Source: a virus (Duplodnaviria > Caudoviricetes). From it: a DNA stretch of 64,000 bases. The stretch is from positions 138,176 through 202,175 of IMG/VR virus record IMGVR_UViG_3300031867_000003; one strand, written 5' to 3'. Both the position numbers and the translations under genes were made by a program. Below the pieces are notes generated by a model, which saw only the letters and a program-made list of their open reading frames with translations, ran no database searches and was not told the DNA's origin. This document shows, piece after piece, positions 39,250 to 64,000 of the stretch. Positions within the stretch are counted from its first letter, which is position 1; each line of letters begins with the position of its first letter.

Positions 39250-40455
39250 TTATTCAAATAACTTAGCAAACAATTTACTTGTTTCACTTCGAACATCTTC
39301 CTCTAAATAAATACAAGCAAATTTAGGATTGCCTCGTAATTCCAAACTCATTTTATTAAGCGCATTATTCTTTGTCGGATTAATGACACTTTGTTTATAG
39401 TCACCATTGTAAAAAACCCGAGAATTTTCGCCGACACGAGTACCGATTAATCGTATCTGCTTTTCTGTTAAATCCTCGGCTTCATCTACAACAATTACGC
39501 TATTGTTATAAGTGCGACCCTTAATAAAATACGGAGTATTAGCTTCGATTACTCCGCGCTGAATTAATGATTCAAGTTCAAATTCTCCTCCGTCTAATTG
39601 ATCGGCAAAGGGCAGTAAGAAGTCATAAATTTTGTCTAGTTTCTCACCTGGTAAATAGCCGACTGCCTCACCCTCCGAAATAACCTCGCGAAGTGCAACT
39701 ATCTTAGATTGCCATCCCTTTTCTTGAATAGCATAAGTAGCCATACAAGTACTTAGTCTGGATTTTCCAGAGCCGTAGCCACCTAATATTGAAGCTATAG
39801 TAATGCTTGGATTATTCAATATGTCCAATCCACATCTCTGGAGAGAATTCTTACCTTTGATATATTTTGACGGTGGCAGCTTCAACGGTACAAACATCGA
39901 ACCGTCAAACCGCATTTCCTTAATTGAATCGTCATCTGTATTATTAATAATGATATACTCATTCGTATACCATTTAGAATAGTCTAAGTTATTCATATAG
40001 TTATTAATATACTCGGTATCCCCGGTAATCTTAACGTATCCCTTATAAATTTCATCCTGATGTTCAAATTCCTCAACGTCTAAACCAAACACTTGCTCGG
40101 CAATTACACGACATCCCACATCAAAAGTAATAAATTTAATAGGAGTTACATTGGTAGAATACCAAGACGCACACGCACAAATAATATTATCCGGCGTTTC
40201 GGGTATATTGTAAGAATTGATTAATTCCCTAATGGAATTATTATAGACAATGACCTCATATCGGTCTTTGTGATCGTTTAAGAATCGGATTGCTTTACGA
40301 GCCGCCGAACGAACATCATCTGTCTTGGAACGGCTATTTTTAATTTCTTCGAGCTCAAACAATGTTTTATCAGAAATAACAAACTCAACATCTGAGAAAT
40401 AATCCGGATTCTCAATCAACACATTAGTATCTAGGAATAGTTTTGCATCGCCCAT
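39250..40455 (-). CDS. phoH: PIN-PhoH (PhoH2-like) protein
   Basis: LDTNV PIN domain; GGYGSGKS, GYLPG, KGRT, VDEAE, GDYKQ. Confidence 0.9.
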   Translation of the reverse strand: MGDAKLFLDTNVLIENPDYFSDVEFVISDKTLFELEEIKNSRSKTDDVRSAARKAIRFLNDHKDRYEVIVYNNSIRELINSYNIPETPDNIICACASWYSTNVTPIKFITFDVGCRVIAEQVFGLDVEEFEHQDEIYKGYVKITGDTEYINNYMNNLDYSKWYTNEYIIINNTDDDSIKEMRFDGSMFVPLKLPPSKYIKGKNSLQRCGLDILNNPSITIASILGGYGSGKSRLSTCMATYAIQEKGWQSKIVALREVISEGEAVGYLPGEKLDKIYDFLLPFADQLDGGEFELESLIQRGVIEANTPYFIKGRTYNNSVIVVDEAEDLTEKQIRLIGTRVGENSRVFYNGDYKQSVINPTKNNALNKMSLELRGNPKFACIYLEEDVRSETSKLFAKLFE

Positions 40456-40485
40456 ACTATAAGCCCCCTTGCGGTAATATAATTA

Positions 40486-40671
40486 TTATCTGGTAAATGT
40501 AGTTACATTCTTGGAATTCCTATATTCCTCAAGTAACCGTATAGACTTTGGCGATGTAGTTAAGTAATAAACCTTAGCCCGACTTTTATGAGTCGCACTG
40601 CTCATATGGATATCTTGACCACGATTTTTACTTCTTAAAAATTTTGCCTCATCAGCAGAAATTTTAATCAA
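40486..40671 (-). CDS. small hypothetical protein
   Basis: TTG-start ORF MIKISADEAKFLR. Confidence 0.55.
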   Translation of the reverse strand: MIKISADEAKFLRSKNRGQDIHMSSATHKSRAKVYYLTTSPKSIRLLEEYRNSKNVTTFTR

Positions 40672-40762
40672 ATATTTTCACATCCTTATAATATATTTTT
40701 GATTTTACAAAAAAAATAAAGGGAGCGCAACAACACTCCCTTTAATAAATAATCAAATAAAA

Positions 40763-41038
40763 TTATGCGTTAACAGCTTCCTTTACGCTTGCACCAAATT
40801 TTACCTTCGGCGCTTCTTTAGCCGGAATAGCAAGAGGTTCGCCATTCTGCGGATTGCGTCCGGTATAAGCGTCTTTGTGAACCGTGTAGAACTTCATCCC
40901 CGTAAACGGAGTAACACCGTCCTCGGTCTTCATAGCTTCTACAATGGCCTCACCGACACCGACAAGGACTTCTTTCATATCCTTCTGAGAAAGATTACAC
41001 TTTGCTGCACACAGTTTTACAAAATCAAGTTTCTTCAT
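40763..41038 (-). CDS. hup: HU-like DNA-binding protein (YonN-like)
   Basis: GRNPQNGEPLAIPAKEAPKVKFG; AGGAG RBS before ATG 41038. Confidence 0.9.
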   Translation of the reverse strand: MKKLDFVKLCAAKCNLSQKDMKEVLVGVGEAIVEAMKTEDGVTPFTGMKFYTVHKDAYTGRNPQNGEPLAIPAKEAPKVKFGASVKEAVNA

Positions 41039-41202
41039 AATATAGTTCTCCTTTTTTTTCCTTAATATAATTGTATAATTGAATTTACGCCATTCTCGGC
41101 AATATAGCGTAAATGTAGTAAACATAAGGGTTTGCGATCCCTCATAAATGCTTGAATGGGGAAATTGCAAAATTTCACGTATTTACTGGAATTTTAAGCA
41201 TT

Positions 41203-43869
41203 TCACTTTTTCTTATGTGACCCCACATCAGGCGGTAATTCCCTTAAAAAACAAGACAAAAATAGCTTTGGATTAACTTCATACAATACCTTCAGAAGTA
41301 TCGATCTGTTCTTATCCGTTTTTCTCGATAGCTTGGCAGAGTTATTTTTAACCGCCGTCGAAAGAAGGAATGCCCGGTTAATCAGATAACATACCAAATC
41401 TCTGTAATTAGTAGATAGGCGAATTTGCCTAATATCATTTATTAACTCATCAAAGTCACTTCTAATAAGAAGAAACTCCTTGTCATATTCCCCAGTATAT
41501 ATATATTCTTCTCTAATACTCGCATAGTATCTAATAGAGTACCTCTCAATCCACTCCTCGACCTTGCGACTTTGTTTTCTATCACCTTTGTATTTGATAT
41601 GTTCCATAAAATCCCATAAGCCGACTGCATCTTGCCGGTAACTCATCTTGTTCAATTTTAAGTCCGCCAAATAATTCATAGGGCAGTGAAGATCGGGATT
41701 GATTTTTTCCTTATTAAAATTTTTCTTAATGTTAAGCCAAAACTTCGGATAACCATTGGTATCTATGTCCATATCTTTCTGAATACGGGCGATCTCATCC
41801 GAAATAGAAATATCAAATTGGCGCTTCGCAGAATCAATAGCCGCTTGGGCTATAACGCTAAGGATTGCCACATAGTCATCATATTTTCTATCATGGAACG
41901 TATAGGAATAAGTCTGGGCAAGCTGGGCAAGGTTTGATGACAATCCTATGTCAAGCTGCGATTTTGCCAGGGCATTATCAATCGCCGCATAATCGTCCAT
42001 AGTATTGTTGTATTTATTAGTGTCTTTAGGGATATTGTTAACAATAGTGGGATAACTTCTGTAACAATACTCTGCGTGACGAACAATATCCGGTTGATTG
42101 GTTACATACATTGAGTCGCTGTCCTGATCGCTCCCATTGTTACGATCTTGACAATCTGTACCAATCATATTAATAGCAATAATCTGATCACTAAACTTGA
42201 AGTATTTTTTCATCCTATCATCATAATGATTATGTAAATATGACATATTGAATTTCCCGTTGAACGGACTGCGAAATCCCGCCAGATATTCACCGTCATC
42301 AAATCGACTGGTATAACATTGAATGGTACCTTGTTCTTTAAGCAACGTAGTATCAAGGTCAACATCATCCGGATTTCCGGTAGCACCATATAATAGCATT
42401 GCATATGGAGAACCGACAATAACCAAGTTGTCAGCATTCTGAATTAGTTTGCCACTTTTGGCATTGTTTGCATATTCACGTATGATTCGACTTTTCCGCT
42501 CCCTAAAATATGAACATCTTACAAACTCCGGATTCCATTCACACAACGCCAACAATACGTTATAATCATTAGCGAAGTTAATGTTATGGCGGAGATAATC
42601 GAAAAATACTTCATTATCATTTTTTAGCTGTTGAATATAATTAACTGTCTCCGCGCATACGGCTTTCATGGTTGCTTCGTCCAATGAGTTCGTCATTTGA
42701 TACGACATTCGCTGCACCTTACCCAATTTACTGGGATGAGAATACTTCACCACGCCAAATTTGCAGCCGTTAGACTCCACCCATCGACACCAATAATCAT
42801 ATGAAAGGTCAAACTTAATCCACTTGACAGCATTATTAGTAGTTATTAATTCTATATCTTTAACATAATGGTCATTACCCCAGATATCCTTGACGGTATA
42901 CGTAGAATAATCCTCGCCGTGTTTCTCACACCAATCTCGGAAAAATTGCTTTATATTTGCATGAAACGCTGCCATTTTGGTAAAATGATGTCTCAACAAT
43001 ACATATCCATTCGCCCACTCCGGAAACACTGAATCATCAATTAACGCCTGACCGTCAAACAATTCGTTACTTAGTTCGTACTCATCTAGCCATTTTGCAT
43101 AACAATGCCGACGACTATCAGTTTCTATAGTGACAACATCTCGCGTAAAATACCGCTTTACATCATTAAGAACCAGTATATTTCTCGGATTGATAGTTGC
43201 GTAACCGACAATCCCACTGGCAACCAACGGAGCATAAGCAGATATCTCTACAATTGGGGCATTGGTACTCGGCAATTTAATTCCCATGTAGAGAAAGTTT
43301 CGTGCTTTATCAAACAACTCATCACGAATAAACATACAACTACCTTTTTTAGCTTTGCCCGTGGAGCGGAAGAGCATTTTGTAGTGAATAGTTTCTTCCT
43401 TATATATAGTACCGTCTTTTTTTCGCGATACATACTTTACGTCAACACCATTGTTATAATAGTCACTACGAACCTTATCTTTTAGTCGCCGAGTATATTG
43501 ATCCTTATTCTCATAGGTAGCTTCGAATAATTGATTGAGTTTGGCGATTTTATTCTTAGCCTTAGCAATCAAATATTGGTCATCTTTGGCTACGGCGCTT
43601 CGGTATTCATTGCGAGCACCCTTCAGTGTTTTATATAAGTGATCGATTTCATCCCGGTAAGATCTGGTTTTAAAGTTAAACTCCAAACCAATCACATCCC
43701 GTGTCGCTCCGCTATTACTAACATATAGCCCGTTCTCCATTAAAAAGTCGAGGAACAAGCTATTTACCAACATTGCCCGTTTGTATTCAAAATGATCACG
43801 TAATCCTAAATTGTACTCGTAATTTGTACTAGCTTCTATATTTTTAATTTCAACTCCGTACTCGCTGAT
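41203..43869 (-). CDS. yonO: YonO-like single-subunit DNA-dependent RNA polymerase
   Basis: FRSTGKAKKG, FDGQAL, RSP, NGSDQDSD (DxDxD metal motif), AIDSAK; synteny with HU as in SPbeta. The frame is open 32 codons above ATG 43773 to an ATC behind GAGGGGG. Confidence 0.85.
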   Translation of the reverse strand: MSEYGVEIKNIEASTNYEYNLGLRDHFEYKRAMLVNSLFLDFLMENGLYVSNSGATRDVIGLEFNFKTRSYRDEIDHLYKTLKGARNEYRSAVAKDDQYLIAKAKNKIAKLNQLFEATYENKDQYTRRLKDKVRSDYYNNGVDVKYVSRKKDGTIYKEETIHYKMLFRSTGKAKKGSCMFIRDELFDKARNFLYMGIKLPSTNAPIVEISAYAPLVASGIVGYATINPRNILVLNDVKRYFTRDVVTIETDSRRHCYAKWLDEYELSNELFDGQALIDDSVFPEWANGYVLLRHHFTKMAAFHANIKQFFRDWCEKHGEDYSTYTVKDIWGNDHYVKDIELITTNNAVKWIKFDLSYDYWCRWVESNGCKFGVVKYSHPSKLGKVQRMSYQMTNSLDEATMKAVCAETVNYIQQLKNDNEVFFDYLRHNINFANDYNVLLALCEWNPEFVRCSYFRERKSRIIREYANNAKSGKLIQNADNLVIVGSPYAMLLYGATGNPDDVDLDTTLLKEQGTIQCYTSRFDDGEYLAGFRSPFNGKFNMSYLHNHYDDRMKKYFKFSDQIIAINMIGTDCQDRNNGSDQDSDSMYVTNQPDIVRHAEYCYRSYPTIVNNIPKDTNKYNNTMDDYAAIDNALAKSQLDIGLSSNLAQLAQTYSYTFHDRKYDDYVAILSVIAQAAIDSAKRQFDISISDEIARIQKDMDIDTNGYPKFWLNIKKNFNKEKINPDLHCPMNYLADLKLNKMSYRQDAVGLWDFMEHIKYKGDRKQSRKVEEWIERYSIRYYASIREEYIYTGEYDKEFLLIRSDFDELINDIRQIRLSTNYRDLVCYLINRAFLLSTAVKNNSAKLSRKTDKNRSILLKVLYEVNPKLFLSCFLRELPPDVGSHKKK

Positions 43870-44545: not shown

Positions 44546-44558
44546 GGATAATTCCCCC

Positions 44559-45323
44559 TTACTGCTTATACTTCTGAATTATATGACGGACACAACCTCT
44601 TACCAAATCCGCACCGGAAATTTGCGGAGACGGTTGTGATGGTACTTCGCCAGACATATTTTCATACACGTTGGTGACCACCTTTTTCATTTCGACGTCA
44701 GTGAAATTCCCCTTGAGCTTATTACACGTCGGATGAACGGCACGGAGATTGTCTATATTATTTGTACCGCCGCGAGACAGCGGTATTATATGGTCGATAG
44801 AGTATGAAAATCGACTCAACGGTTTTCCGCAAATCTCACATGTATTGTTGGACCTACGGTACACTTCTTCTCTGATAGCTTTGGGAATAAGTACTCGTTC
44901 CGATGAATTCATCCCGGAGAATTTATCAGGGTCAGAAACGGGATTTTTAACCGTAGTGACTTTTCCCATCTGTTTTGCGTGGCGAAATTTATCATCAATA
45001 ACCACTCGTAAGTCTCGGTCAATATAATCAAGCACCGACTCCATGTGAGAATATGCTTCTTCCGGTGTGGAAAATACTCTGGCTTTCTTGATATCATTAA
45101 CGGTAGTATCATCATTACTCAAAAATTTCATTCTGGTAGTAACGACATAATCATTGCCCTTGGATGAGGTTCTGGTTCTATACCACATGTAAGAATCCGG
45201 CGAACGATTAACAGCCTTCTGGGCATCTACCAATTTCATATGGGTCGCCCCGGACGGGGTAGGGGCAAATTGCCCGATACCTCGCAAGAATTGAATGTTA
45301 TTAGCTATATAGTATTTATTCAT
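44559..45323 (-). CDS. HNH endonuclease
   Basis: CEICG...IDHIIPLSRGGTNNIDNL...CNKLKG. Confidence 0.9.
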   Translation of the reverse strand: MNKYYIANNIQFLRGIGQFAPTPSGATHMKLVDAQKAVNRSPDSYMWYRTRTSSKGNDYVVTTRMKFLSNDDTTVNDIKKARVFSTPEEAYSHMESVLDYIDRDLRVVIDDKFRHAKQMGKVTTVKNPVSDPDKFSGMNSSERVLIPKAIREEVYRRSNNTCEICGKPLSRFSYSIDHIIPLSRGGTNNIDNLRAVHPTCNKLKGNFTDVEMKKVVTNVYENMSGEVPSQPSPQISGADLVRGCVRHIIQKYKQ

Positions 45324-45338
45324 AATGATTAATCCTCC

Positions 45339-46385: not shown

Positions 46386-46432
46386 AGTATTCCTCCAAAT
46401 TTAATAAATAATTAATTGCATATAGTTGTTAG

Positions 46433-47329: not shown

Positions 47330-47455
47330 GGCATTATATCCCTTCTGTTTAATAAATAATCAATAAGTTGTTACGCTACTAATACGGTGGCGGCAGTTGA
47401 TAGCGGAAAATTCTCATAGCTGATACCTCCTGGGTAAAATTATCTCGGTAGGTTA

Positions 47456-47484
47456 ACTATAGCATAGTGATTTACTTATGTCAA
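47456..47484 (-). promoter_or_regulatory. sigmaA/70 promoter
   Basis: TTGACA-17bp-TATAGT with extended TG. Confidence 0.75.
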
Positions 47485-49580: not shown

Positions 49581-49609
49581 AGTGTATCATACTATATTAG
49601 TTTTGTCAA
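49581..49609 (-). promoter_or_regulatory. sigmaA/70 promoter (leftward arm)
   Basis: TTGACA-17bp-TACACT with extended TG. Confidence 0.7.
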
Positions 49610-50460: not shown

Positions 50461-50763
50461 TTGACCATAGTCAACGGCGACAGTCGCCGGGGGCTTGTTT
50501 CACAAATAGGCGTACATGATACCGCGGTTTACAGTGGAAGGTGTAAAGACTTCAACGAAGGTTTACACCATATCGACGGGGGATGCAATCGCACAAACTG
50601 CCACTATAAACACCTTATACATAAAATTGTTTCAACCGGTGGTTGAGACAATGTTTTACCTTTATTCAGTGCATCAAATCCGCCCGGTTTGGTGTACTGG
50701 AATAAGGGCAAAACAAAGCCCGGTAAAAATCAATTTTTTCTATTAAGAAGGGAGAAAAAAAAC

Positions 50764-51486
50764 ATGAATAACACAATTAGTATTACTTCTCACAACAAGG
50801 ACTTTAACAAAGTAAATCGTGATTTTTTAACACCGTCCTTTGTAATTGACTCCGGTACTTTCCAAAAGGAAGTACAAAACACGGTTTATTATTTCGAGTG
50901 CGTAAAGATGATGCACCAGTTAGACGCGGAGTCTAACAAGGATAAAGACGACCGGGACGAAGAAAAAATCCGGGAGTTAGGAGCAAGGATTAACGCTCTG
51001 TCGGATTATAACAAGGGTGATTATGTATCCGTTGTTTACGCCTTTTCAATGGGCATTGTTTCCGGCACGGTCGGTATTGCCGGATTTGATAATCTGTTTT
51101 CAGATGTCAAGACGTACGGCGAACAATACACCGGCGTTGAGTCTTGGAGTGACGACCGGAAAAAAGCGTTTACGGCTATTAAAACAGCTTGTAATAATTT
51201 ACTCGCATGGAAGTTTAATTTAAACCAAATCGACGCCGGCCGGGGGATTTACAAAACGTTTGTTCCCGAAATGTCAAGCCGAGCCGTCGAAATGTTTATT
51301 AACGCGGTATACGGCGTTGACGGTCGGGGAAGTGCCGGAAAGAAGGACGAAAAGATTTTCGGCATTAAGCGCCGGGCGATGAAAAAAGAACGGGCGTTTA
51401 TCCTTCTTTGTGCCTCCATGTTTAAAAAATACGGTTGCGAGATTGGAAGTACCTCCAGAACAAAGGTTGTTGATTTCATCATGTGA
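50764..51486 (+). CDS. hypothetical early protein
   Basis: AAGGGAG RBS, ATG 50764; followed by a terminator. Confidence 0.7.
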   Translation: MNNTISITSHNKDFNKVNRDFLTPSFVIDSGTFQKEVQNTVYYFECVKMMHQLDAESNKDKDDRDEEKIRELGARINALSDYNKGDYVSVVYAFSMGIVSGTVGIAGFDNLFSDVKTYGEQYTGVESWSDDRKKAFTAIKTACNNLLAWKFNLNQIDAGRGIYKTFVPEMSSRAVEMFINAVYGVDGRGSAGKKDEKIFGIKRRAMKKERAFILLCASMFKKYGCEIGSTSRTKVVDFIM

Positions 51487-51494
51487 TACACACA

Positions 51495-51523
51495 GCACCG
51501 GGCTAATTGCCCGGTGCTTTTTT
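51495..51523 (+). terminator. rho-independent terminator
   Basis: GCACCGGGC-TAATT-GCCCGGTGC-TTTTTT. Confidence 0.8.
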
Positions 51524-51619
51524 ATTGCACGAAAAAAGGACCGGACGCCGGGCAGGCGTTTAACTCCGGTTCTTTTTTGATGCAATAAAATATTATTCAG
51601 ACGATAGGAGAACAAAGCT

Positions 51620-52306
51620 ATGAAACCATGCAATCAAACTAAAGATTTTTCGTGTACTCTTTTCGGCGAAACTCTGCCGAAATATGAATTTTACGGGCGT
51701 GTTGACGGTACTACATACCGGGCGGATTATTTCACCGGGCGTCTTTTAATCCGCGATACAAAGCGCAACATCTGGAAGTCGTCCACACTTGAAAAGAACG
51801 CCCGTATATATAACGCTGTGAAGGCGTATATCAAAGAGCACGGGATTCTCGGCGATCACGTCGAAATTTGTCATCATCGGCAAGCCGAGAAAAAAGAAGC
51901 GTTCTACCGCACCAAGACATTTGAACGCCGTTGCCGTGTCGAACGTGACCGTGAAATCATGGAGTCCGCGCCGGTAATGCGCAAATCGACAATCAGTGCA
52001 TTTGGTGCTGCTGCGCACGATTATGACAGCAGTCGCCGGCGTGTCGCAGTTGAGACCGACCATATTTTCGAACTTGACGGATACCGCGGTATATCCGCAG
52101 ACGAGCGAGATCGGGGATATTCTCAGCCGTTCGAAATGGGACAGAGTACTTCCGGTACTGCCGGCAAATATACACGTTCCGGATTTGAAACCCGGGACGG
52201 GCTAAAGGTCGCCCAGAATAAAATCAGACCGGAGAAAAAGCCGGTCAAACGTGAGAAATTAATAATTAGGGTAAACGGCAAAATCGTTTACTCTGAGGAA
52301 AACTAA
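51620..52306 (+). CDS. hypothetical early protein
   Basis: AGGAG RBS, 228-aa ORF. Confidence 0.7.
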   Translation: MKPCNQTKDFSCTLFGETLPKYEFYGRVDGTTYRADYFTGRLLIRDTKRNIWKSSTLEKNARIYNAVKAYIKEHGILGDHVEICHHRQAEKKEAFYRTKTFERRCRVERDREIMESAPVMRKSTISAFGAAAHDYDSSRRRVAVETDHIFELDGYRGISADERDRGYSQPFEMGQSTSGTAGKYTRSGFETRDGLKVAQNKIRPEKKPVKREKLIIRVNGKIVYSEEN

Positions 52307-52317
52307 TAACATAACAA

Positions 52318-52351
52318 GCGGTTACTCATTCCGGTGAGTAGCCGTTTTTTT
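52318..52351 (+). terminator. rho-independent terminator
   Basis: GCGGTTACTCA...TGAGTAGCCGT-TTTTTT. Confidence 0.75.
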
Positions 52352-53784
52352 ATGCCCAAATAAACGAGGTGAAAAATGATAAAAAATAATTTATACGCTC
52401 TTTTTACCTAAAGCGCACACGCCACAAGTGCGCCGCGACAAAAATAGTGTGTGGTGGGCTACGGACGTGCCAAACGTTCGACTTGTTATCACACGCAAGG
52501 ATTGCGCCGGAAGATTATCCTTTCAGGCATAGTGTGTCGTGGTGGTTCCACGCAATATTAACCTGTCGGTCCGGTAAACCGATGAAACTAGCCACAAACC
52601 GGAACTACCAAATCCGGTTAATAGTGTTGGGCGGTCGCCTTGTGTAGGTATACATACACGAGGATTCCCGAAACGTGGATTAGCTACCCACGGGGCAAAC
52701 GACCGTCTTTTTTCATGAAGAAAAGTGGCTTTGATTATCCGCAAGTTATCCACGCAGTAGGACTCGCGCCGGGTTCAATCCCCGGGCGTGGATTTTGTAA
52801 CCCATCAACCACAGCTATCACCCGGAAGCTGACCGGGATACCAACAGCACGGCACTATGAGTAACGCCACCTTTAGTAAACGTATGGATGAAGTCCGCCT
52901 TAACGAAGGACTTCTCGATTTATGGGACATTCTCGACAGCTTTGCTCCGGGGATGTATTGCTACGACCCGTGTTATGAGTGTAACGTGGTAAGTGCGGAA
53001 TTTTTGGCTCGTCTGCCCGAATTCCGCAAGTGGGCAAAAGCCCGGGGATTGCGTTGGTTCCGTACATGGGAACAGCGCGAGGAGTGGCTCAATAGCTGAA
53101 TTTATCTGCCTATGTGCAGATACCAGACCGTGAATACATTCGCAGTTTGGTATGTGCGCATAGTCCGTAACCGATACGGTTTATCCCATACGGTTACACT
53201 ATGAAACCACGCACAGAAAGAAGGTGAGAACTATGCTCACCCTTCAACAGCTTATGGACGGAACGTTCAAGTTAACCCTGGATCTCACCGTCGGCAAGAA
53301 TCACGTCATTAGAACGTGGTACTTTGTCAAGGTCGAACCGTCCACCGCAGAACCCGACCCTCACGGGGAAAAGTTCCGGTGGAAAATAAAGGTTGACTAA
53401 CTCCGTCCAAACCGGGGAGTGTGGGAGTAATCCTATGCTCCCTTTGCTGTTGATAAAGTAACCGGATAACTGCCCTGTCCGCAACCTAGATCACCGCTCA
53501 TGGATTAGCTACGTGCAATCTGTGGGTGCGTTGGGGGGTTATGCGAGGGGTTAATTACTACGAAGGGGGTTATTCCCATGAAAAGAATGCGCTTAGAGGA
53601 CGGTTCTGTCCTTATTGTTAAATTGCTCCATCGTGAGCAAAAGCACCTATTTACCATCACTGACCGCACTACTATGAAATGTGTGGTTAAGTCACTCACA
53701 GAATTAGAAGCCGACCAATACCGCGATCGCGGTTACTGGGTCGAATGATGAACTATTAAATATAATACACAAGGAGGAATCACT

Positions 53785-54057
53785 ATGGCTATTCGTAAAA
53801 CAACGGTAAAGAACACTGACACTATTAACTACAATGTCATCGAGAACTGCGGAGTAGTTGCGCCACGTAAGGGTGGATACGCTCTGGAACTCCGCTATAT
53901 CTCTTGGAACGATAGAGAGCCGGTATACGATCTCCGCCCGTGGAAGGTTAACGATGAGGGTGAGGAAATCTGTGGTAAAGGTATCACACTTTCCGGCGAG
54001 GAACTGGAGTCCATCGGTAATCTGATTGCAACACTTGCGGAAGGAGGCGAGGCATAA
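53785..54057 (+). CDS. YdbC/PC4-like ssDNA-binding protein
   Basis: ELRYISWNDREPVYDLRPW...GKGITL. Confidence 0.8.
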   Translation: MAIRKTTVKNTDTINYNVIENCGVVAPRKGGYALELRYISWNDREPVYDLRPWKVNDEGEEICGKGITLSGEELESIGNLIATLAEGGEA

Positions 54058-54292
54058 TGGCAATCATTAGAATGATAAACAATGGCAAAGAAATCACGTT
54101 CCGGGTGTTTTCTGACGGAACATATATTATAGGTACAAACACAACGTTGTGCCATGATTTTGCGGACGCTTATATTCAACTCCGCGAAGTCGGGTTCGTT
54201 GAGGTAAAGTGATATTGCTATTCATAGCTAGACTATGCTCATAAGGCATCTTGTGGGCATAGATGTGGTTATGAACCGCAAATAAAACAATC

Positions 54293-57200
54293 ATGGAGGA
54301 ATATATCATGGGAAGAACATTGTACTTCGAGGGTGCTGGATGTGAAGGTACCAACGTAAATGATGTTGAGAACTGCCGTATCAGAACGGCATTCCGCACC
54401 GATGACGGAAGGGAATTCTATTTGGAACTCTTTTCCGGCTGTGAGAATTACCACCGGTATGACGCACCGCCGGGAGCCGTGAAAAAAGGATATGAGCGTG
54501 ACTATTACTACACTTGCTCGGACATGATCGTTGTAGATTTCTGCTTTGAGATCCACAATGGAAACGGAGATTGCAATACATACATCCACCCTATTGAACG
54601 CAAGAGAACCGGTTTGTCCTACACCAAGGCAAACATCCTCAAGCTAGTAAACGAGAATCTCGGATGTAGCTTTACGGATATGGTTGCTCTGCCCTGGTTA
54701 GCCGGATACCGTGTACATTCCGGCAATCCCAAACGGAAATATAATCTGATGGATGATTATACCGACATTCCGGAACGTACCGCAGAGCGAAACCGCATCT
54801 ATCATGAGGTCGCTCGTGACTATTTTAACCGGATTTACCAGTCCCACATCAAGGCAAATCCGCGAGTAGCTCGTCTACTTAGCAAGTACGAGACCTGGAG
54901 TCTTGTAAAGTGCACCGATAAAACAATTACAATCCGTTCTCATACGTACAAAGAACTGATTGATGATGCGGAGCGTGTCCATACATTCCGCGTTAATTAT
55001 TAAGAAGGGAGATGAGCTTATGCCTCCGCAGATAGTAACGAAAAAGGACGCATACGAAGCCGGCGGATACCGGGAACGCTATGCAATGGATAACGGTACA
55101 ATGGAAATCCGCACGGTAAACGGACACCGCTTGTGGATTTTCCGCTACTCAAAGGCAAATTCGTACCAGGATGCAAATGGTGCGACGTTCGATTGTAAGG
55201 AAAGGAAGTGGATCGGATAATGGCACTATTCGGCTTAGGCTTAATCATTGGCTGGCTCATCGGAGCTGTCATGATTGGTTTAGAATTCCAGAGAGAAAGT
55301 ATTAGCCTCAAGGGAAAGCGAGGTGGTAAATGTGGCTGATAAATTATTAAAGTACTGCTTAAAGAAACCATACTTCAAGCTAATGCAAACCTACAATGAT
55401 GTATACTGGGCGGTAAAGAAAACCGCCGTAAACTTCCTCTATGATACATTCTGTGATGAGGAAGTTCTGGAACCGGCACTGCTCCGGAAAGTAACCGATA
55501 TGATTCTCTCACTCAAGGGAAACGTAGCCAATTAACTAATAACAAAAAACTAATTATTAAATAAGCGAAAGGATAGGTGTGTATTATGACGAATAAAGAA
55601 GCAGTAAAGCAGATGGTAAAAGTTTTTGGTTTCGATTCCGTAATGGAAATGGTGGAAACCGTCCGGGATGAAATCCACGAGGAAGAGAAGAAGTACCAGC
55701 GGATAATTTCGCCGTATGAGTACAGTAGCACCGGACGTCAGGGGAACAGAGAAAAAGTTGTTTACCCAAATTGGGTGGAGGAAACCTACAATAAGGTACT
55801 TTCCCAAACAGGGATTGGATGCCATACTTATGGAAGCGGTGGTTCCAGGGGGTTAAAAATAACATATCCGTCGTTTGCGAAATACGTTATTTACACCTGT
55901 AATGACAACGGAATCACGTTGTCAAACATCCTTGAGGTGTTGGTGTCCGCTCCGGCTTGGTGTACCGGACACGGAATTACTCGTTCTCGTATGGAACTCG
56001 TATTCCATATCCTTGTACTTCATAGGGAAAGCACCGGGGCTGTTAAAGAGGAGTTAAAGAAACTCCTCAACAAGTATGACCCGGTTGCACTTAAGGTGTT
56101 CGCAAACGCCGATGATGATTACCGTCATACGTTGAACTACGAAGCGAAAATGATCGCATTCGCGGAGAAGAAGGTTCTGGAGAACATCCGCGAAGAGAAA
56201 CCGCGCTTCGAAGTGGTTGCCTAATCCTTGTGATTAGATAAAGCCGGTGATCCCATACCTCGCCGGCTTCAATGTAACCATAAGGTAAAATAATTTATAA
56301 GGAGATAACACCATGAAACTAAAAATCTTGTTACCCGAGATTGAGCGGCGCTATTCGCTCTACGTCAAGGATACCGAGTTCCGGTACTTCCTCTCAGAGG
56401 GAAAGGCAAATCATTGGTATGTAAAGGACTTCGCAACCTGGGCAGCGAATATCCTCAAGAACGCATTGTTCCGCCCGGAAGAAATCTGTGAGTGGTACAA
56501 AACCTATGAGTGCAATGACACGCATATTACAACGGTATTCAAGCATTTTATCAAAGAAAGGGGAATCATCTAATGGCAGCGAAATCAATTAAGGTAAGTA
56601 AGTGTAATGACAAACGCAAGTGCTTCGCCAAGGTGTTCGGCGGTTGCATGGCACTTGACACCACATATCCCGAGGGAAAGCAGTGCCCATTCTGCAAACC
56701 CACGAGAAATATCACAAATGGTAAAAAATACTCTTGACAAAGAGAAACTCTTGATTATAATTAATTATTAAAGGAGCGTGGCACTATGAAAAAAATATAT
56801 GCCAACATTATGATTGCCAAGGTATATAGTAATATCCTTGGCGAACTTAAAAAGAAACTCGTCATCTTCACTGACGGAAAGGTGTTTGAGGGTGCGCTGT
56901 TCTGGCCTATGGATTCCGACGATATGATTATGGAAGTTGTTTCCGTAGTCCATGCCGAAGGAAGTCCGTGGCAAGTTATCCTTAATGCATATGGCCTCCT
57001 CAAGGCAAACGGAATGCTTGCCAAGGATGACAAAACGTTACTGACAATGCTCCACTGGCAGCACGTCAATGGATTCTCCGAAGAGATGTTCATTGATGCT
57101 TATGGGGCAGAGAATGATACGGAGTATTTAGCCAAGGAGAGAGGAGATAATACCTATGTGGGAACTCCATATTAAAGATCAGTATGGGCAGATTGCCCAG

Positions 57201-59980
57201 ATTCAAAAAGAAACCCCGTCAACCGCAACTCCGGTGTACGATTCCATCACACCGAAAAACAAATGTGGTTATAACGATGCAAAGCTTACCGTCGGCTATT
57301 CAGTCGAATGGTTGCCGGAAGAGAACTCCGCGGCTTATGAAAACTCCCAGAAAGATACCGGTGGTCCAGACCCTTGGGAGTTAATGAATGAATACCAGAC
57401 GGATTCGCTTGGATTAGCTATCCGCCAGTTACTTCTCCGCACATTAGATCCACATGCCGACATGGCAAAGCTGTTCATGTGGATTACCACCGAGGACGGA
57501 CACCATGGGGCAGAAGCCACAACGGAAATCCCCGGTGACACAGTTCCGATGCTACGGAACATGGTCCAGGAGAATATTAATAAGCGAATTGACTCGCTTG
57601 AGAAAACTGTTGATAGCCTGGAAAAGGAGCTTGTATTGTACAAGTCATTTATTAAAAAGTATAACGGTGAAAAACTGTTTGACGAGTTCAGAAAGGAGAC
57701 TGAATAATGACAACAAAGCAAATCGCTCGCAACAGAGGAGCAAGACCGATGACTTGCGTGGATACTTTGTGTTGCAAAGCCTACAGTAACCCGGCGAAAA
57801 TCAAATGGAAACGTCAGTTCCGGTCATTGGCTCGGGACTTTCTGCTGACTGAAGTGGTTATTGATTCCATTATTTATGATGTGGAATCCGCAGCTAAGGC
57901 AAACGAGGGTAACAACGTCCGCTACGAAAAAGCACGTCAGAAAATGCTGAGAGCGGTGTTTGGATAATTTATTAAGGAGGTAGATACTATGAAACTTTAC
58001 TATGAGGAGACATACGGCAACTACTATGATGTAGATGCCGACAACCCCGAGGCCGCCGAAAAGGAATTACTCCGCTTAATCGGCGAAGGCAAAGAAAATG
58101 GCCCCGATCAGTGTGAGAACAGTGTGGTCGTTCCGCTCATTGGTAACGGAAAGCCGGACTTCCAGATTATGGGCGGACGAATCGACACCATGAGTGAAGA
58201 TGAAAAGAAGTTCTACTTGTGGCATCTACTCCGCTACTACTATAAACCACGGCTTATTGCTGACAAGGAAAAGTACGCCGGTAATCACGATACGGTTGAT
58301 ATGATTGATTCGCTACTCAATAAGGTAGACAAGATTGATACTCTTCTCTGCTATGAAATTTATTAAAGGAGGATGTCTATGAGTCAGATTGAATCCAAAG
58401 GAATCCGGTTCATCCGCTACTTCGGCGGACTGGTAGCCGGCAATCCAGAGAGAATTGAAATCCACACCTGTTGTGACGTTCTTATGGTTAATAACCCAGA
58501 GGATGTTGCACTGGTAAATAGTTTGGTTAAAGAAGCCAAACGGCTCAAGGTAGATACAAACAGCTACCTTGAGTACAAGCTGGTTGAAGAACATGATTGG
58601 TAGGAGGTAGCCATTATGACAAGAGAAGATATCAGATCCAACGTTGAGGGAATGGTTGAGAAGGCAATCGAAAATATATTTCTCAACATGCAGTATAGCC
58701 TGAATGTTACCGATGGGTTCATTGACCCGTGGGATTCATATAAGTTGGATGTAAAGGAATCGGAAATCACAGAAATGATTACCGACATACTTCTTAATCA
58801 GCCAAGAGAGGAGGAATACTGATGTATTGGCGAGTAGTTCTTGACTACGGAAACCGCCGGGAATATGTCCCCGTTCATTCCTCGGAGTTCGCGGCAAATT
58901 TAATCGCTAAGAACTACCGATTACTTGCCAAGGCAAACGGTGATACTGTAACCGTGATTACGGTTGAAAAGGTCATGGTTATCAATAACATCATTAGAAA
59001 TGTAGGGTGAGGTGATATTATGTTGAGATATTTGGTGACCTACAAAATTGAGGGAGAACTTAAAGACCCACAGATCTATACTAGCAACCAGATTTTTAAT
59101 ACCATGGATATGGATGATTGCTATGATGTGGAAATTGACCGCATCTACTTAATCTCCGCAGCTACTGCACCCATTGAGTGCAAATTCAAGGGAACTTGGT
59201 GTTGCAAAGATGAGGACGGCAGATGGGACGCACTCCGTATGGAGATTGTAGATAAAGAAACCGGTGAAGTTTACTCGGTCGGTCGCGGAACCGATCATTA
59301 AGGAGGGACACTGCGATGAGTAGAATTTATAAGGGAAAAATCAACTACACTATAAAGCCGACGCATCCAGATAAAGACTATGTCGTTGGCGGATGGAAAC
59401 CCGATAAGGTTTATTCATTTGAGGATGAATATAGATTTTCAGATTATTGCACTAATAACGAAGCAATGGAGATTATTAAAGACGATCTTCGACTGGTAGC
59501 CGGAGGTGGTTACAACTGGAATCACATTGATAATATTGAGTTTGTAATTAAGGAAGTGATATAATGCTGAGCATAGAATTTCAGCAACGGATTTATGAAG
59601 CCTACAAAGCAAACTGCGAAAATACCGTCCAGCATGGGCAGTACGAATATGCGATAGCAACAAATAGCTGTTGTACCATCCACACTTGGATAGTCCGACG
59701 GAAACGGATTAACCGCCCGGGAGGTGAGTGGCACTGGTTACAACCGCTTGACTTATCAATTTATTAAATGAGGTGATGGGTTATGATAAAACGCAAACTT
59801 ATTCAGTACATTGTAACACACATTGAGCCGGAAACAGCAACTCGGCTCAATCAGTTCCTCAAAGACCACGATCCTTACGAATATAGGGATAACGAAATGT
59901 CCCTCGACAAGGTAAAAGAAATGGATTGTGACACAGTCATTAACTATTTGTTAGATGTAATCGAAGAAATGGAGGACTAA
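54293..59980 (+). other. array of about 17 small co-oriented hypothetical early genes (e.g. 54293..55003, 55577..56224, 56313..56573, 56786..57175, 57156..57707, 57989..58366, 58373..58603, 59020..59301)
   Basis: Tightly packed ORFs, most with strong AGGAGG-type RBS; no internal TAG. Confidence 0.7.
56734..56761 (+). promoter_or_regulatory. internal sigmaA/70 promoter
   Basis: TTGACA-16bp-TATAAT upstream of 56786..57175. Confidence 0.65.
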
Positions 59981-59982
59981 TT

Positions 59983-60594
59983 ATGATTAACAAAGTTATT
60001 AACGTAAACGAGAACCACCCGATGCACGACAAGCTCATGAATATGATGAACAACACGACCGATGAGAATCTCATCATCGTAGCGCGCAGCTACAAGAACC
60101 GCAAAAATGATGCTATTGAACCGATTGAAGTAAAAAATGGTATTTACTTCTATGTTGCATACAATCTCGACGGTGCGCTTGCATTTCCGGCAAATGTAAC
60201 TCCGATGCAAATCGTCATAGCGAAATCCAATATGGCGGAGAAAGCTAGACTTGGCACAATGTTAGACGCACAGCTGACAGTTGGCGGTTTTGGTAGGTTT
60301 ATGAAACACGTAGACGAGTTCACTGCCTGGGATGAGCCGATGATATTGCTTACTACCGACGAACTTGCGAATGGTGCAGGAATTTTGTTAAACAAGTATG
60401 TTTTGTCAACTATCAAAGAGAAACTCGGAGATTACTACATCCTTCCGAGTAGCATCCATGAGTTACTCATTGTTCCGGCTCACATGATGAGTATCCTTGA
60501 TGCAACCGAAATGGTTGTGGGAGCAAACAGAGACGCTGTAACAGATGATGTGTACCTCGCTGACAGGGCATTCCATGTTGACGAGTGGCTTTGA
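59983..60594 (+). CDS. DUF5688-like protein
   Basis: NGA.ILL...LGDYYILPSSIHELLIVP...MV..AN. Confidence 0.7.
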   Translation: MINKVINVNENHPMHDKLMNMMNNTTDENLIIVARSYKNRKNDAIEPIEVKNGIYFYVAYNLDGALAFPANVTPMQIVIAKSNMAEKARLGTMLDAQLTVGGFGRFMKHVDEFTAWDEPMILLTTDELANGAGILLNKYVLSTIKEKLGDYYILPSSIHELLIVPAHMMSILDATEMVVGANRDAVTDDVYLADRAFHVDEWL

Positions 60595-61004
60595 TAAAAG
60601 TCGGATTTGAAGGGAGATGATAGCGTGAGAATTATTAATTGTAGTATTCCGAATTGCGTTCCTGAATATAACCGTAGTCGCTTCGAAGATGAAGCCCACG
60701 AAGCGGAGAAGGAATTCGAACGGTTGACCTGGTACGAAAAGAACAAAGCATACCGCCGGCAGAAATATATCGAAGGTTGCAATGAGTTGCGCTTCTATAC
60801 TAGCGTATGCGTGGATTGCCCATACGGGGAGGAAGCGATGCCGGAAAGCGAAATGGACGATATGCCCACTATGATTTGCAGCAATTGGAAAAGCTGTCCG
60901 GTGTACCGCAAAGATGTAGACGAACATTTCCCGACAACATCATGGGAAGAATATTGTAGCTGGCACGAAGAGTACGTTGAGAAGCTTAAGAAGGGAGAAG
61001 CGGA

Positions 61005-61310
61005 ATGGTGAAAGAAAGAGAATACGTAATCTACATGGCACCAATGAGTGTGAGTTACACATTCAGAGATTTTGAATGTGCCATGAAACACGGATGGAAG
61101 ATGAGCGATTACGTTCCGGTTTGGCGAGGAACAATATCAAGCGAAACGGTAAATGGTGCGCTTGAAAAACTGTTCGTCATATTCAATACAGATGAACGTC
61201 CGTCTCAGTATTGCGGAAGATCGTTAAGTATGTCGGATGTTGTAGTACTTGATGGGATTCCATACTACTGTGACGACATTGGATGGAGTGAATGCTCAAT
61301 TGATTATTAA
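61005..61310 (+). CDS. YodL-like protein
   Basis: LEKLF..FN..RP..Y.GRSLSMSDVVVL...YYCD.IGW. Confidence 0.8.
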   Translation: MVKEREYVIYMAPMSVSYTFRDFECAMKHGWKMSDYVPVWRGTISSETVNGALEKLFVIFNTDERPSQYCGRSLSMSDVVVLDGIPYYCDDIGWSECSIDY

Positions 61311-61328
61311 ACGAAAGGAGACTACCAC

Positions 61329-64000
61329 ATGAGAGTAACAACATACCGTAACAAGAGAAACCCTCACAAACTCCTCGATGTCAAGCATACCGCCGACCGT
61401 CACTACATGTGGCGGCAGCGGATAGTGTTTGATAATGGAGTAGCCAATCCTGTCGGCACTCCCCAGGGTGGATTTCGCCGGCAGAATAAGGCAACTATAG
61501 ACGAGGTTCTGAAAGATTATAAGGAGTGGTAACTATGGAGAATAATTCAGTCAGAATCAAGGTAGGTCAGACCTACACGGTCGGTAATGATTCGACAATT
61601 ATTTGGGAGTGGACATACAAAGGAAATGCACTCATCAGAGAAAGAATTATTGGGTACTACCACGGAGTACCTAATGATAATGACTTACGTGAATTTGCGT
61701 ATGGCGGAGTTGATGGACTGCTTGACGTAGATGATGTAGAGTTTGAATTTGAAGGGAGATAAATCATGGATTACGAAAAAGAAATCGAAGATAGTATCAA
61801 AGAAGCGATTAAAAATAATAGTTACATCGAAGCTGATTATGATGAAGATGTTCTTTTCCCGGAGGTAGAAGATGTCCAGACATTCGAAGAGGCAGACTTA
61901 TTAACAATGGATAATGGAGTTGTGGTCGACCTCAAAGACGGGACAAGAGTTTACTTGACAATTCAGGCATACAAATAAGGGGTGATTACATGACATTTAG
62001 AGATAGCGAAATAAACCAGATAGAAATCGACATGAATACATTATGGCTTTATGATGAAGAACAGCAAAGGGTGGTGGTTGATTTTTATCCAGGCTATTCA
62101 ATACGGAGACGAGTGCTAGATTTTCTCGGCTTGGATTTAGATAACGTGTTTACTGACATGTGGCTTGATGCCACGGCAATGATTGACCCGGAACGCCGGA
62201 TTGTAACGGGACTGTACTTCGAAGTTCCGCTTGATGAGTATAACGGGATGCCGCCAACGGAATTGTCACTGTTGATTACTAACTATCCTGAGGGTAAGTT
62301 GTTCTTCGACCGCCTGATGGAAAGCAGCAACGGCGCACTTGAAGATTTTATTAAAGAGTATAATGGTAGCATTAAACAGCCGAAGTTGACAGAATCCACT
62401 TACAAGACGGCATTGTGTGGCTAATGAAAACCGAGTTTAATCAAACAACGATTTGAAGGGAGAATGAACTATGATTAAAGATATTATTATGGATCTTATT
62501 GCAGACAACAAAGAAAATATGCACTATGTGTTAAATGAATATGACGAGGGATATACAGACGGATATCATGATGCGTTGGTAGATTTAATGAATAAACTGG
62601 GCATTGAACATAATGAGGAAATTATTAACCAGTAATAAAACGGTTATTTCATTAGTAGTATAGATACAACATATAGTATTTAAATAGAAAAAGGAGATAC
62701 AAGATATGGTAAAACTTACAGAACTTGGCAAGGCAGAAGTCAACACTTACATCCGTGAAGCAGAAGCCAAACGAAAAGAAATCCTCGATGCAAGAATTGA
62801 TACCGCCGATGGCACGTGGCTTCCCAACGAGGATGATATCTTGATGGATATTGAACACTTTGAGGAAGATGGAGAGTACTGCAATGGATGGGGAGTAACG
62901 GATAACTACAATGCAGATTATCCGCTCTATCTGAAACGTGGTGTCCATTACAACTGATAAAAGATAGGTTTGATGAAGGGAGAACGCACATGAAAAATGA
63001 ATTGGTGATCTGGATTGACGGCACTATGTCATATATTTATTTCAAGACAAATCAGACCAAGGCCGAAGATGCTCTTGCAGAATTTGATACATTAATGGAT
63101 CGGATTGGCGTGGATACATGCAATGTAGGCATCTCTGAGATTGAATTAAGAGATGCAAATACAAATGAAACTATTGATAAAGTTGTGTACTAATAAACAG
63201 CTTTTACAGAAGGGAGATAAAGCCAATGATCGAATGGATTCTTCAGTTGGAAGGTCAGAATATGTTACAAGTTCATTATTCAAGTGGATATGACCGTTAT
63301 ATATTCCCCGATGGTTATGGAAACTATGAAACAAATATGACACGACCGCAGCGGAATTTCATGGATAATTCCATAAAAGTAGAAATGCTTAATGCAGATG
63401 GTTGGTATAGAAAATTCTATTACTGGTTGGATAAAGATAATCCAAATAAAGGAATCATGTCACAGGTTAGAATTAAAAATCAGTTGTATGGAAATCGTTA
63501 ATTATTAAAAGGAGATGGTGTTATGAAATTATATTGGCCGATGGCAATTATTGTAACAGACGATGGCCCCGATCAGTTATTCACATATGATTGCGCATTA
63601 ACGTTTGAAAAGGCAGAGAAAGTATTCGATATTTGGGAGAATGATTATAAATATAAAATCGCCGCCCGATGGATTGATGTTGATAATGATGGAATTAAAG
63701 ATAGGTCATTCAAGAGAATTAATCTTGAAGCTGTAAAGGAACTGTGGGAACAGTTTGGAGATGTACCTATGAATCCCGAAACAGAATGTATTGAAACATA
63801 TTGGGGGAGTTTGCTGTGGAGCGAACATTTCCGTCCAGGTACTCACAGAGAAGAGATTTGGCACTGGTTCGAAGATACTTTTGATATTAGTGTTGCGGAA
63901 GATTTGATGTGATAATACAGCTTTTATAGGAGGAGAACAGTTATGAATGAATTAAAAATTGAATTCAGTAACGAAAGTTTTTTATATTTTAAAACCAACA
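61329..64000 (+). other. further small hypothetical early genes (61329..61532, 61766..61978, 61990..62424, 62706..62957, 62990..63193, 63226..63501, 63523..63912 and a partial ORF)
   Basis: Co-oriented ORFs with RBSs, TAA/TGA stops. Confidence 0.7.

Follow-up and report, generated by a model that had tools for sequence, protein, structure and literature searches.

Two coding regimes in the genome of a large gut phage: a TAG-free block with a YonO-like RNA polymerase beside a TAG-recoded virion arm

We analysed the final 64 kb of a single 202,175-bp virus contig, IMG/VR record IMGVR_UViG_3300031867_000003 (topology label linear; CheckV completeness 100%), a stretch that a search of sequencing runs located in DNA runs from cattle-gut and other gut metagenomes and in no RNA run. 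The whole 64,000-nt stretch is referred to as the window, and positions are those of the window unless given as genome coordinates. The genome contains two coding regimes: its long minus-strand virion arm uses TAG as a sense codon, whereas the remaining genes, among them one for a YonO-like RNA polymerase, are essentially free of TAG and readable in the standard code (code 11). We lean, with modest conviction, towards the view that the contig represents an SPbeta-like jumbo phage, whose host would be a standard-code member of the Firmicutes in the cattle gut, and that the phage switches TAG from stop to glutamine (Gln) in mid-infection.

Open reading frames (ORFs) were listed under code 11 and again with TAG as sense, and a greedy gene set was built genome-wide. 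The genome falls into three clean parts, namely the minus-strand virion arm, a minus-strand TAG-free block and the plus-strand arms. The virion (late) arm of about 94 kb (genome 83.3-177.2 kb; window 1 to about 39,000) holds 52 ORFs of at least 150 amino acids (aa), with 294 in-frame TAG in 27,294 codons; 39 of the 52 contain at least one. When TAG is read as sense, coding density in this arm rises from 0.606 to 0.926, compared with 0.68 for a control reassignment of TGA and 0.77 for TAA, and the median ORF length increases from 120 to 267 aa. The minus-strand block at 39250-49380, by contrast, has seven ORFs of at least 150 aa (2,634 codons) with 80 CAA or CAG and no TAG, and its coding density of 0.867 in code 11 is identical with TAG as sense. 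Given the TAG share of Gln codons in the late arm (26.7%), 80 Gln codons without any TAG would arise by chance with a probability of about 1e-11. The plus-strand arms of the genome are essentially TAG-free, and beyond the late arm just 5 of 140 ORFs use TAG as their stop. An earlier reading of the window, made from the sequence only, held that the genes for PhoH, HU, the polymerase and all others from 39250 to 64000 are intact in code 11, in contrast to a TAG-laden late arm. Both statements are borne out by per-gene TAG counts and by examination of all TAG-containing frames, which in the 49.4-64 kb region, apart from the interval 58373-58822 treated below, are wrong-strand ORFs, 5' extensions or non-coding-looking frames fitting no gene.

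The same reading had named GC content as an explanation that would undo its proposal. Mean gene GC is equal in late and early arms (0.380 versus 0.379) and out-of-frame TAG is equally frequent in both, at 15-17 per 1000 codons, while in-frame TAG amounts to 10.8 per 1000 codons in the late arm versus 1.1 in the early arm. The contrast persists in each of four GC bins, in which the TAG share of Gln codons is 0.24-0.30 for late and 0.03-0.09 for early genes; the residual TAG in early genes are mostly 5' extensions from longest-ORF calling. Taken together, these comparisons show that the pattern is not an effect of base composition, and an explanation by GC alone is refuted.

The position of the change in code follows from the genes to the left of the polymerase operon:

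39250..40455, minus strand: PIN-PhoH ATPase, TAG-free (Pfam PhoH E=1.5e-32, PIN_4 E=2.3e-13; phrog_2765 E=5.7e-76)
37670..39028, minus strand: HNH homing endonuclease with 2 in-frame TAG (phrog_4538, phrog_559)
36732-37346, minus strand: ClpP-like prohead protease, TAG-free (PHROG match)
34873-36090, minus strand: YonJ-like SbcD exonuclease, TAG-free (PHROG match)
32987-33059, minus strand: tRNA-Pro(UGG), start of the conserved code boundary
32942-32919, minus strand: terminator after tRNA-Pro, end of the conserved code boundary

Judged from codon usage, the true boundary between TAG-free and TAG-using genes is placed at about 33 kb, at the tRNA-Pro and its terminator. The sequence-only reading had put it at 39250, about 6 kb too far right: PhoH, protease and exonuclease, despite their place past the HU terminator, are TAG-free here and in relatives, as are the small ORFs between protease and exonuclease (34873..37346), and the counterpart genes of relatives, which carry the Pfam domains YonJ_N and CLP_protease. 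The HNH endonuclease at 37670..39028 is an insertion in this otherwise TAG-free block and is not at this place in G001, the relative described below. A 188-aa ORF at 33416-33982 has a TAG at codon 23, which may fall outside the real gene; its positional counterpart in G001 is non-homologous. A tRNA-Pro stands at the equivalent boundary in G001 and in two further relatives, L003 and L004. Just upstream of the tRNA-Pro, the minus strand at 33070-33135 contains a T-arm-like GGGTTCGATTCCCG; ARAGORN calls nothing there, and the element could be a tRNA remnant or a non-canonical tRNA.

The layout recurs among relatives. G001 (189,811 bp, 98% complete) encodes a polymerase 92% identical to that of the window; TAG shares in its minus arm at 40-120 kb are 0.22-0.36 in most 10-kb bins (0.11 in one bin), 0.00 in its polymerase block at 120-130 kb, and near zero in its plus arms. 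The same code boundary is found in L001 (polymerase 64% identical) and L004 (terminase 89% identical). In L005 (terminase 70% identical) the standard code is used throughout, so that the family, as far as gene sequences tell, holds both codes. Among relatives whose polymerases are 62-92% identical, the code boundary is sharp and conserved.

We then consider which amino acid TAG encodes, for which the relevant genes of the virion arm are:

30707-31762, minus strand: YonG-like gene, 1 TAG (PHROG match)
28950-30710, minus strand: large terminase (TerL), 11 TAG (PHROG match)
27354..28934, minus strand: portal, one TAG at codon 73 of 526 (phrog_2739 E=2.8e-84)
20635..21741, minus strand: major capsid protein of the Pfam YonB family, HK97 fold, one TAG at codon 71 of 368
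1..3444, minus strand: giant ORF, first 1,148 codons of 2,497; 32 TAG in the window, 57 overall

The columns of the 11 TerL TAG codons are mostly Gln in 120 homologues. Because part of that homologue collection was itself translated with TAG as Gln, we relied instead on a relative checked at the DNA level: the TerL gene of P0213, verified as TAG-free, has CAA or CAG at 8 of the 11 TAG sites. In P0124, a recoded relative, TAG stands where the window phage has CAA, and vice versa. Since an exchange of TAG and CAA needs two base changes, this interchange argues for synonymous usage and not for recent mutation. The lone capsid TAG likewise falls in an invariant Gln column. Invariant Gln columns and interchange with CAA or CAG in relatives, both drawn from alignments, therefore show that TAG stands for Gln. 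As the sequence-only reading had noted, capsid and portal have one TAG each near the 5' end; the phrog_2739 match covers portal residues 39-520 and so crosses the TAG, and the capsid was modelled by AlphaFold with a predicted local distance difference test score (pLDDT) of 80.5, its Foldseek matches being many phage capsids and encapsulins. That reading also spoke of a tape-measure-like gene with about 30 TAG. The count agrees with the 32 in 1,148 codons found here, while a PHROG search of the giant ORF gave no match and its identity as a tape measure is not established.

The host probably reads the standard code, as indirectly indicated by the TAG-free early genes, a TAG-free bacterial-type IS21 element, a true TAG stop at 58603 and the standard-code relative with 70% TerL identity; cultured relatives infect Firmicutes. 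The features concerned are:

58373..58603, plus strand: 76-codon gene closed by a genuine TAG stop; this TAG and the AGGAGG ribosome-binding site (RBS) of the next gene overlap
8834..11193, minus strand: IS21-type element inside the late arm, TAG-free, GC 0.43-0.45 (from composition)
9577-11193, minus strand: IstA transposase (PHROG transposase E=9e-50)
8834-9580, minus strand: IstB ATPase (DnaC-like match)

The interval 58373-58822 was considered as one recoded early gene and rejected; it holds two genes parted by the TAG stop. The second begins at an ATG near 58615, ends at 58822 and lies in the same frame as the 76-codon gene; the relative L007 keeps the downstream gene only, with homology beginning at the AGGAGG-TAG. 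With an active suppressor, a read-through fusion of both proteins would result. The IS21 element and a tyrosine recombinase gene near it (6260-7264) are both TAG-free, and their lack of TAG, together with the higher GC of the element, fits recent arrival from a standard-code host. The phage was found to encode neither a release factor nor a Gln/Glu-type (class 1c) tRNA synthetase, as in most published code-15 cases.

These observations also bear on the concern that the pattern is an artefact, either a chimera in which a recoded phage is joined to one that is not, or a host that itself reads TAG as Gln, with the TAG-free part due to chance or foreign origin. Within the window, GC is indeed higher in the plus-strand arm (0.42-0.48) than in late genes (0.32-0.37). 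Genome-wide, however, mean gene GC does not differ between the arms, the contig is rated complete, the same junctions and layout occur in the independent assemblies G001, L001 and L004, early genes use TAG as a real stop, and the bacterial-type IS21 is TAG-free. We consider an artefact extremely improbable and this explanation largely refuted.

For reading TAG as Gln, a candidate suppressor is encoded within the virion arm:

26510..26827, minus strand: suppressor tRNA(CUA), 87 nt when mature (ARAGORN)
26885..26910, minus strand: terminator-like hairpin just upstream of the suppressor, conserved in relatives

It is the sole CUA tRNA called by ARAGORN in the genome. A 231-nt intron (26564-26794) splits the tRNA between anticodon positions 35 and 36. 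Compared with the group I intron model RF00028, the insert scores 29.7 bits, below the gathering score of 50 (E=1.1e-5 in a 551-nt local search), and a whole-window Rfam search at gathering threshold does not report it. Its 5' splice site shows the U.G pairing (CUCU with GGAG), and its last base is G. Evidence for the exon junction comes from an intron-free allele on an 8,970-bp IMG/VR contig (L010:5674-5762), which reads ...GTAGTCTCT|AAAACTAC..., exactly the predicted junction; this allele keeps the long variable arm, with one base change, and its hairpin differs by one compensatory G-C to A-T change. At the threshold of the tool, no sigma-70-like site was found between hairpin (26885) and tRNA (26827), so that the suppressor is probably made via read-through or from another promoter. 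Positions 26828-26884 and their counterparts in L010 and G001 contain a small conserved inverted repeat around TAATGCGTT (TAACG...CGTTA here), which might act in processing or as a promoter.

In shape the suppressor is class II-like: its variable arm is a 13-nt stem-loop with additional bases, base 73 is G, and A1 and C72 are mismatched (A1.C72); its D-loop has 5 nt without GG, and its T-loop reads TGCAAGT. Given the class II look, the long variable arm and G73, Ser, Leu or Tyr were considered as the amino acid inserted at TAG; they are excluded by the Gln columns and the interchange with CAA and CAG. Charging might occur by glutaminyl-tRNA synthetase, through the anticodon (CUA), G73 and the weakness of pair 1:72; the other candidate route is glutamyl-tRNA synthetase with GatCAB. 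The phage's own tRNA-Gln(UUG) is not an obvious parent of the suppressor.

In G001 the slot, with identical flanks, is occupied by a different 72-nt RNA with a CUCUAAC loop (G001:C1:112929-113002, equal to L018:12929-13002, minus strand). By hand it folds as a class I tRNA with A1-U72, G2.U71 and G73, and RNAfold gives a cloverleaf; ARAGORN and the Rfam tRNA model both miss it, and its fold energy is no better than that of shuffles. The slot thus seems to accept exchangeable suppressor cassettes. Because the intron is lacking in L010 and in the G001 slot while the two-code layout is kept, the introns behave as sporadic mobile elements.

Group I introns are known from the anticodon loops of bacterial tRNAs, for example cyanobacterial tRNA-Leu(UAA). 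The intron of the window resembles these in its anticodon-loop site, its U.G 5' splice site with internal guide and its terminal G; it differs in that the interrupted gene is a phage amber suppressor, in its position between 35 and 36, and in an Rfam score of 29.7 versus 50 bits. According to a report on Theta ribozymes, which are hepatitis delta virus-like, such ribozymes adjoin suppressor tRNAs in recoded gut phages and are proposed as a code-switch trigger (PMC10879173). Both systems would couple a catalytic RNA to maturation of a phage suppressor tRNA, but a Theta ribozyme is a flanking cleavage ribozyme, whereas the window has a putative group I intron in the anticodon loop. That the intron is lacking in relatives argues against a dedicated regulatory role.

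The sequence-only reading had proposed that splicing unlocks the virion proteins. In this explanation the suppressor intron is an evolved gate, and splicing, beyond transcription, times the code switch. The anticodon is indeed physically split by the intron (C-U / A), leaving no functional suppressor before splicing. Furthermore, of 15 late genes bearing just one TAG, 11 carry this codon within the first 25% of their length (Kolmogorov-Smirnov p=0.001), which hints at selection for an early block, although the numbers are small and some start codons uncertain, with some of the 5' TAGs perhaps upstream of the true starts. Against a gate stand the intron-free form of the same tRNA in L010 and the identical two-code layout of G001 with an intron-free CUA RNA in the slot. 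In G001, a group I intron lies in the polymerase gene instead, and at least two more occur in virion genes of the window. Moreover, group I introns usually self-splice during transcription, with no obvious delay. A regulatory gate is therefore unsupported by the comparison of alleles, and we regard it as quite improbable. As judged from these alleles, the intron is most likely a mobile passenger whose removal, by predicted splicing, would be needed, and not an evolved timer.

The enzyme proposed to transcribe the virion arm is encoded in the TAG-free minus block, for which we list the following features:

49581..49609, minus strand: sigma-70-type promoter-like site heading the TAG-free minus block (TTGACA, 17 nt, TG-TACACT; consensus match only)
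47456..47484, minus strand: sigma-70-type promoter-like site (TTGACA, 17 nt, TG-TATAGT; 11 of 12 matches)
44559..45323, minus strand: HNH endonuclease-domain protein, TAG-free (Pfam HNH E=2.8e-13)
41203..43773, minus strand: YonO-like single-chain two-barrel RNA polymerase, 856 aa, 0 TAG (from fold and DxDxD)
40763..41170, minus strand: HU-like DNA-binding protein, counterpart of yonN, TAG-free (Pfam Bac_DNA_binding E=3.8e-17)
40717..40744, minus strand: strong intrinsic terminator closing the polymerase-HU operon (12-bp stem, then T8)
40486..40671, minus strand: conserved 61-codon ORF with TTG start, TAG-free, at the position of SPbeta yonK

The polymerase gene had been taken to be of about 890 codons; the actual ORF has 856. 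The protein has no Pfam match, while its metagenomic homologues number more than 3,000. Its AlphaFold model (pLDDT 79.7, predicted template modelling score 0.73) shows the fold with two double-psi beta-barrels that also marks multisubunit RNA polymerases, and has as top Foldseek matches the RNA polymerases QDE-1 (5fsw_A, E=8.8e-11) and RDR2 (E=1e-10), with further matches to crAss phi14:2 gp66 (E=1.7e-4), P74 gp62 and P32 gp64. The catalytic D549-x-D551-x-D553 is invariant across 24 homologues. Compared with YonO_1 of Goe11, an SPbeta-like Bacillus phage, BLASTP gives E=3e-11 with about 24% identity over 322 residues, and hhalign a probability of 84% (E=7e-6, 390 columns), placing DqDsD of the window polymerase upon DnDGD of YonO. 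A tblastn search against a phage collection did not reach SPbeta, which makes the relationship to YonO a distant one. Fold, DxDxD, homology and an SPbeta-like gene order all agree with the earlier description of the enzyme as YonO-like; the 856-aa protein is, on these comparisons, a real, distant YonO homologue, and we infer from them a role in RNA synthesis.

The gene order in question is yonO, HU (yonN), yonJ, yonG, TerL, portal and YonB-type capsid; in Goe11, yonN directly follows yonO. Pfam families YonV, YonJ, YonG, YonB, YonD and YomW are found on neighbour genes in relatives, and PF27364 on capsid homologues. The HNH gene at 44559..45323 adjoins the polymerase in L001, L002 and L004 as well. 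The polymerase gene is intact in the window; in G001 and L004 an insert interrupts it after residue 547, so close to the catalytic DxDxD that only two residues separate them. The intervals concerned are G001:C1:125324-125601 (L019:5355-5606), L004:3001-3258 and L006:4182-5486; the G001 insert, about 270 nt long, matches the group I intron model with 45.4 bits (E=2e-10). The yonO of Goe11 is also in two pieces, flanking an ORF.

Both sigma-70-type sites are near-consensus with extended -10 elements, and the one at 47456..47484 stands upstream of the operon whose last genes are polymerase and HU. Together with the HU terminator they plausibly delimit, as predicted elements, a polymerase operon transcribed by the host. 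These elements fit the earlier claim that host RNA polymerase makes YonO; which polymerase transcribes which genes is a part of that claim that we infer. Directly past the HU terminator, a conserved block ATAAGGATGTGAAA (40672-40716) precedes the 61-codon ORF; block and ORF are common to L001 and L004. The block sits where the SPbeta late promoter would be and may be an RBS only. The 61-aa ORF was considered as a yonK homologue and not accepted as such: it has no sequence similarity to the Goe11 61-aa ORF, and position is the sole support.

In SPbeta, YonO is required for 37 late genes, in one operon that starts just after yonN and upstream of yonK (PMC5467207). The window phage resembles SPbeta in having a single-chain two-barrel polymerase with DxDxD and late genes after HU on one strand. 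It differs in the low identity of the polymerase, whose function is predicted by comparison, and in the insertion of PhoH and protease between HU and yonJ; SPbeta, moreover, uses the standard code throughout, has no suppressor and measures 134 kb versus 202 kb here.

Combining these elements, we hypothesize the following course of infection. Genes needed first, in the plus arms and in the minus block from 49.4 to 33 kb, would be without TAG and hence translatable by a naive host; the block would supply the YonO-like polymerase, HU, PhoH, protease and exonuclease. The polymerase operon, with its sigma-70-type promoters and its own terminator, would probably be made by host RNA polymerase. By analogy with SPbeta, in homology and gene order, the YonO-like enzyme would then transcribe the long minus-strand virion arm, which bears the conserved suppressor tRNA(CUA) slot behind the terminator hairpin, just past the portal region. 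Once the suppressor is made (here after removal of the putative group I intron), TAG would be read as Gln and the virion proteins completed, among them terminase with its 11 TAG, portal and capsid with one each, and giant tail proteins with 55-57 each.

Several findings weigh against this course of events. The code boundary at about 33 kb and the SPbeta-type late-operon start at about 40.7 kb are about 7 kb apart, which would mean either a separate 'middle' unit or an imperfect transcription analogy. The suppressor is encoded downstream of terminase and portal, all three on one strand, which would have the mRNA of these two genes made before or alongside the tRNA. Thirteen of the 52 late-arm ORFs of at least 150 aa contain zero TAG. 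A class II-like suppressor shape is unusual for Gln. Finally, no motif specific to the late arm was found: k-mer enrichment in 28 late-arm intergenic regions, in search of a late promoter, gave AT-rich words only.

The code switch may further be hard-wired to the switch of polymerase: the hairpin would stop host RNA polymerase while the YonO-type enzyme reads through, and only cells that make the phage polymerase would recode. The idea of read-through draws on a point made by Forrest et al. (2017, PMC5467207), namely that YonO is without the flap domain by which multisubunit polymerases terminate at hairpins. We think this coupling rather unlikely. If true, it would be a feed-forward lock tying a genetic-code change to a minimal RNA polymerase of ancestral type; obligatory tRNA self-splicing would, in the window phage, be a third requirement.

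Alternatively, the layout may be a passive consequence, in that the suppressor is made early or constitutively, TAG drifts into genes that tolerate inefficient read-through or are translated while suppressor is abundant, selection purges it from genes required immediately, and the arrangement records timing without controlling it. A TAG share of about 0.27, fairly uniform across most late genes whatever their GC, would be in line with drift. Shares are low in high-copy proteins (capsid 1/10, portal 1/21) and high in terminase and in the giant, low-copy proteins, as expected if read-through has a cost; close relatives differ in which Gln codons are TAG; one family spans standard code to recoded; and a stepwise path of this sort has been proposed (Borges et al., 10.1101/2021.08.26.457843). 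Drift accounts less readily for a sharp boundary conserved across relatives, for TAG at invariant Gln positions in essential proteins, which makes these strictly suppressor-dependent, and for the location of the suppressor slot within the late arm, where a conserved terminator hairpin precedes it and no sigma-70-like promoter was seen. We therefore judge a passive origin unlikely, and return to the proposed switch in mid-infection.

Such a switch could also serve lysogeny. In a temperate phage, TAG would block translation of leaky virion and lysis transcripts in the prophage, a role that Borges et al. (10.1101/2021.08.26.457843) proposed for recoded prophages; the code boundary would then act in silencing lysogens and not in lytic timing. 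Judged by YonJ and YonO, the nearest relatives in culture are temperate phages of the SPbeta type from Bacillus, Staphylococcus and Clostridioides, and the tyrosine recombinase at 6260-7264 might be read in the same sense. The recombinase, however, adjoins an insertion sequence element and may be mobile DNA, the contig represents free virus in a metagenome, and neither an attachment site nor a repressor nor an arbitrium system was recognised. We give a lysogeny lock little credence as the explanation of the layout; it and the proposed switch are not mutually exclusive.

The principle of early genes in host code and late genes recoded is already published; the new aspect offered here is its connection with a YonO-type polymerase. 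In gut phages, Borges et al. (10.1101/2021.08.26.457843) described early genes in standard code, recoded structural and lysis genes, suppressor tRNAs, recoded intron endonucleases and different codes within clades. Block-wise dual coding is the subject of the Mgcod preprint (10.1101/2022.06.29.495998), and a Phassvirus paper (PMC10607447) gives a further published case of phage recoding. The window phage resembles code-15 gut phages in several features: coding density recovers once TAG is sense, Gln stands opposite TAG in alignments, a tRNA(CUA) is part of the phage genome, recoding affects structural genes and homing endonucleases while genes for early functions and replication stay host-readable, and close relatives differ in code. 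The named clades of Borges et al. include ones of about 150-200 kb that infect Firmicutes. Unlike those phages, the window phage is SPbeta-like and has a YonO-type polymerase, TAG-free, directly upstream of the recoded arm, and its suppressor occupies a conserved slot inside the late arm and, in this genome, is split by a putative group I intron. A phage RNA polymerase is mentioned zero times in Borges et al. (10.1101/2021.08.26.457843). In the literature found, coverage of which was incomplete and hence weak evidence, nothing links recoding to a YonO-type polymerase and no group I intron is described in a phage suppressor tRNA.

The window phage thus provides a clean, conserved and statistically clear two-code genome placed in the SPbeta/YonO lineage, for which genetically tractable relatives exist in culture, from Bacillus, Clostridioides and Enterocloster. 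The locus adds wiring that can be tested, namely a TAG-free polymerase operon with host-type promoters, a boundary of tRNA-Pro and terminator, and a hairpin-backed suppressor slot. As the occupant of the slot varies among relatives (with intron, intron-free, or a different CUA RNA), comparison helps to separate functional parts from selfish passengers.

Further observations concern the remainder of the genome, with these features:

50689..63912, plus strand: arm of small genes, probably early accessory; code-11 ORFs tile the strand, all intact
genome 14724-15731 and 74487-75737 (L009:725-1732 and L008:1488-2738), outside the window: TAG-bearing selfish genes of the early arm

Twelve proteins of the plus-strand arm gave no PHROG or Pfam match except DUF5688. 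A motif, (A/T)ATTAATTATTAAA, recurs at gene starts, at 46416 (minus) and 56760 (plus) in the window and in about 20 copies elsewhere in the genome, mostly in the early plus arm. An RBS or a TTGACA-like -35 box follows it within a few bases; the motif may mark the boundary of a module or belong to promoters. As a candidate late promoter ATTAATTATTAAA was rejected, being located mainly at gene starts in the early plus arm. In the virion arm, two group I introns score above the Rfam gathering threshold, at 14567-14918 and 18029-18306 on the minus strand (61.2 and 80.6 bits), both between ORFs that resemble halves of split genes.

Exceptions aside, recoded codons are confined to late, structural and selfish genes. 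The selfish genes of the early arm listed above, an HNH endonuclease and a transposase, carry in-frame TAG inside their profile matches, and appear to be silenced until the code switch.

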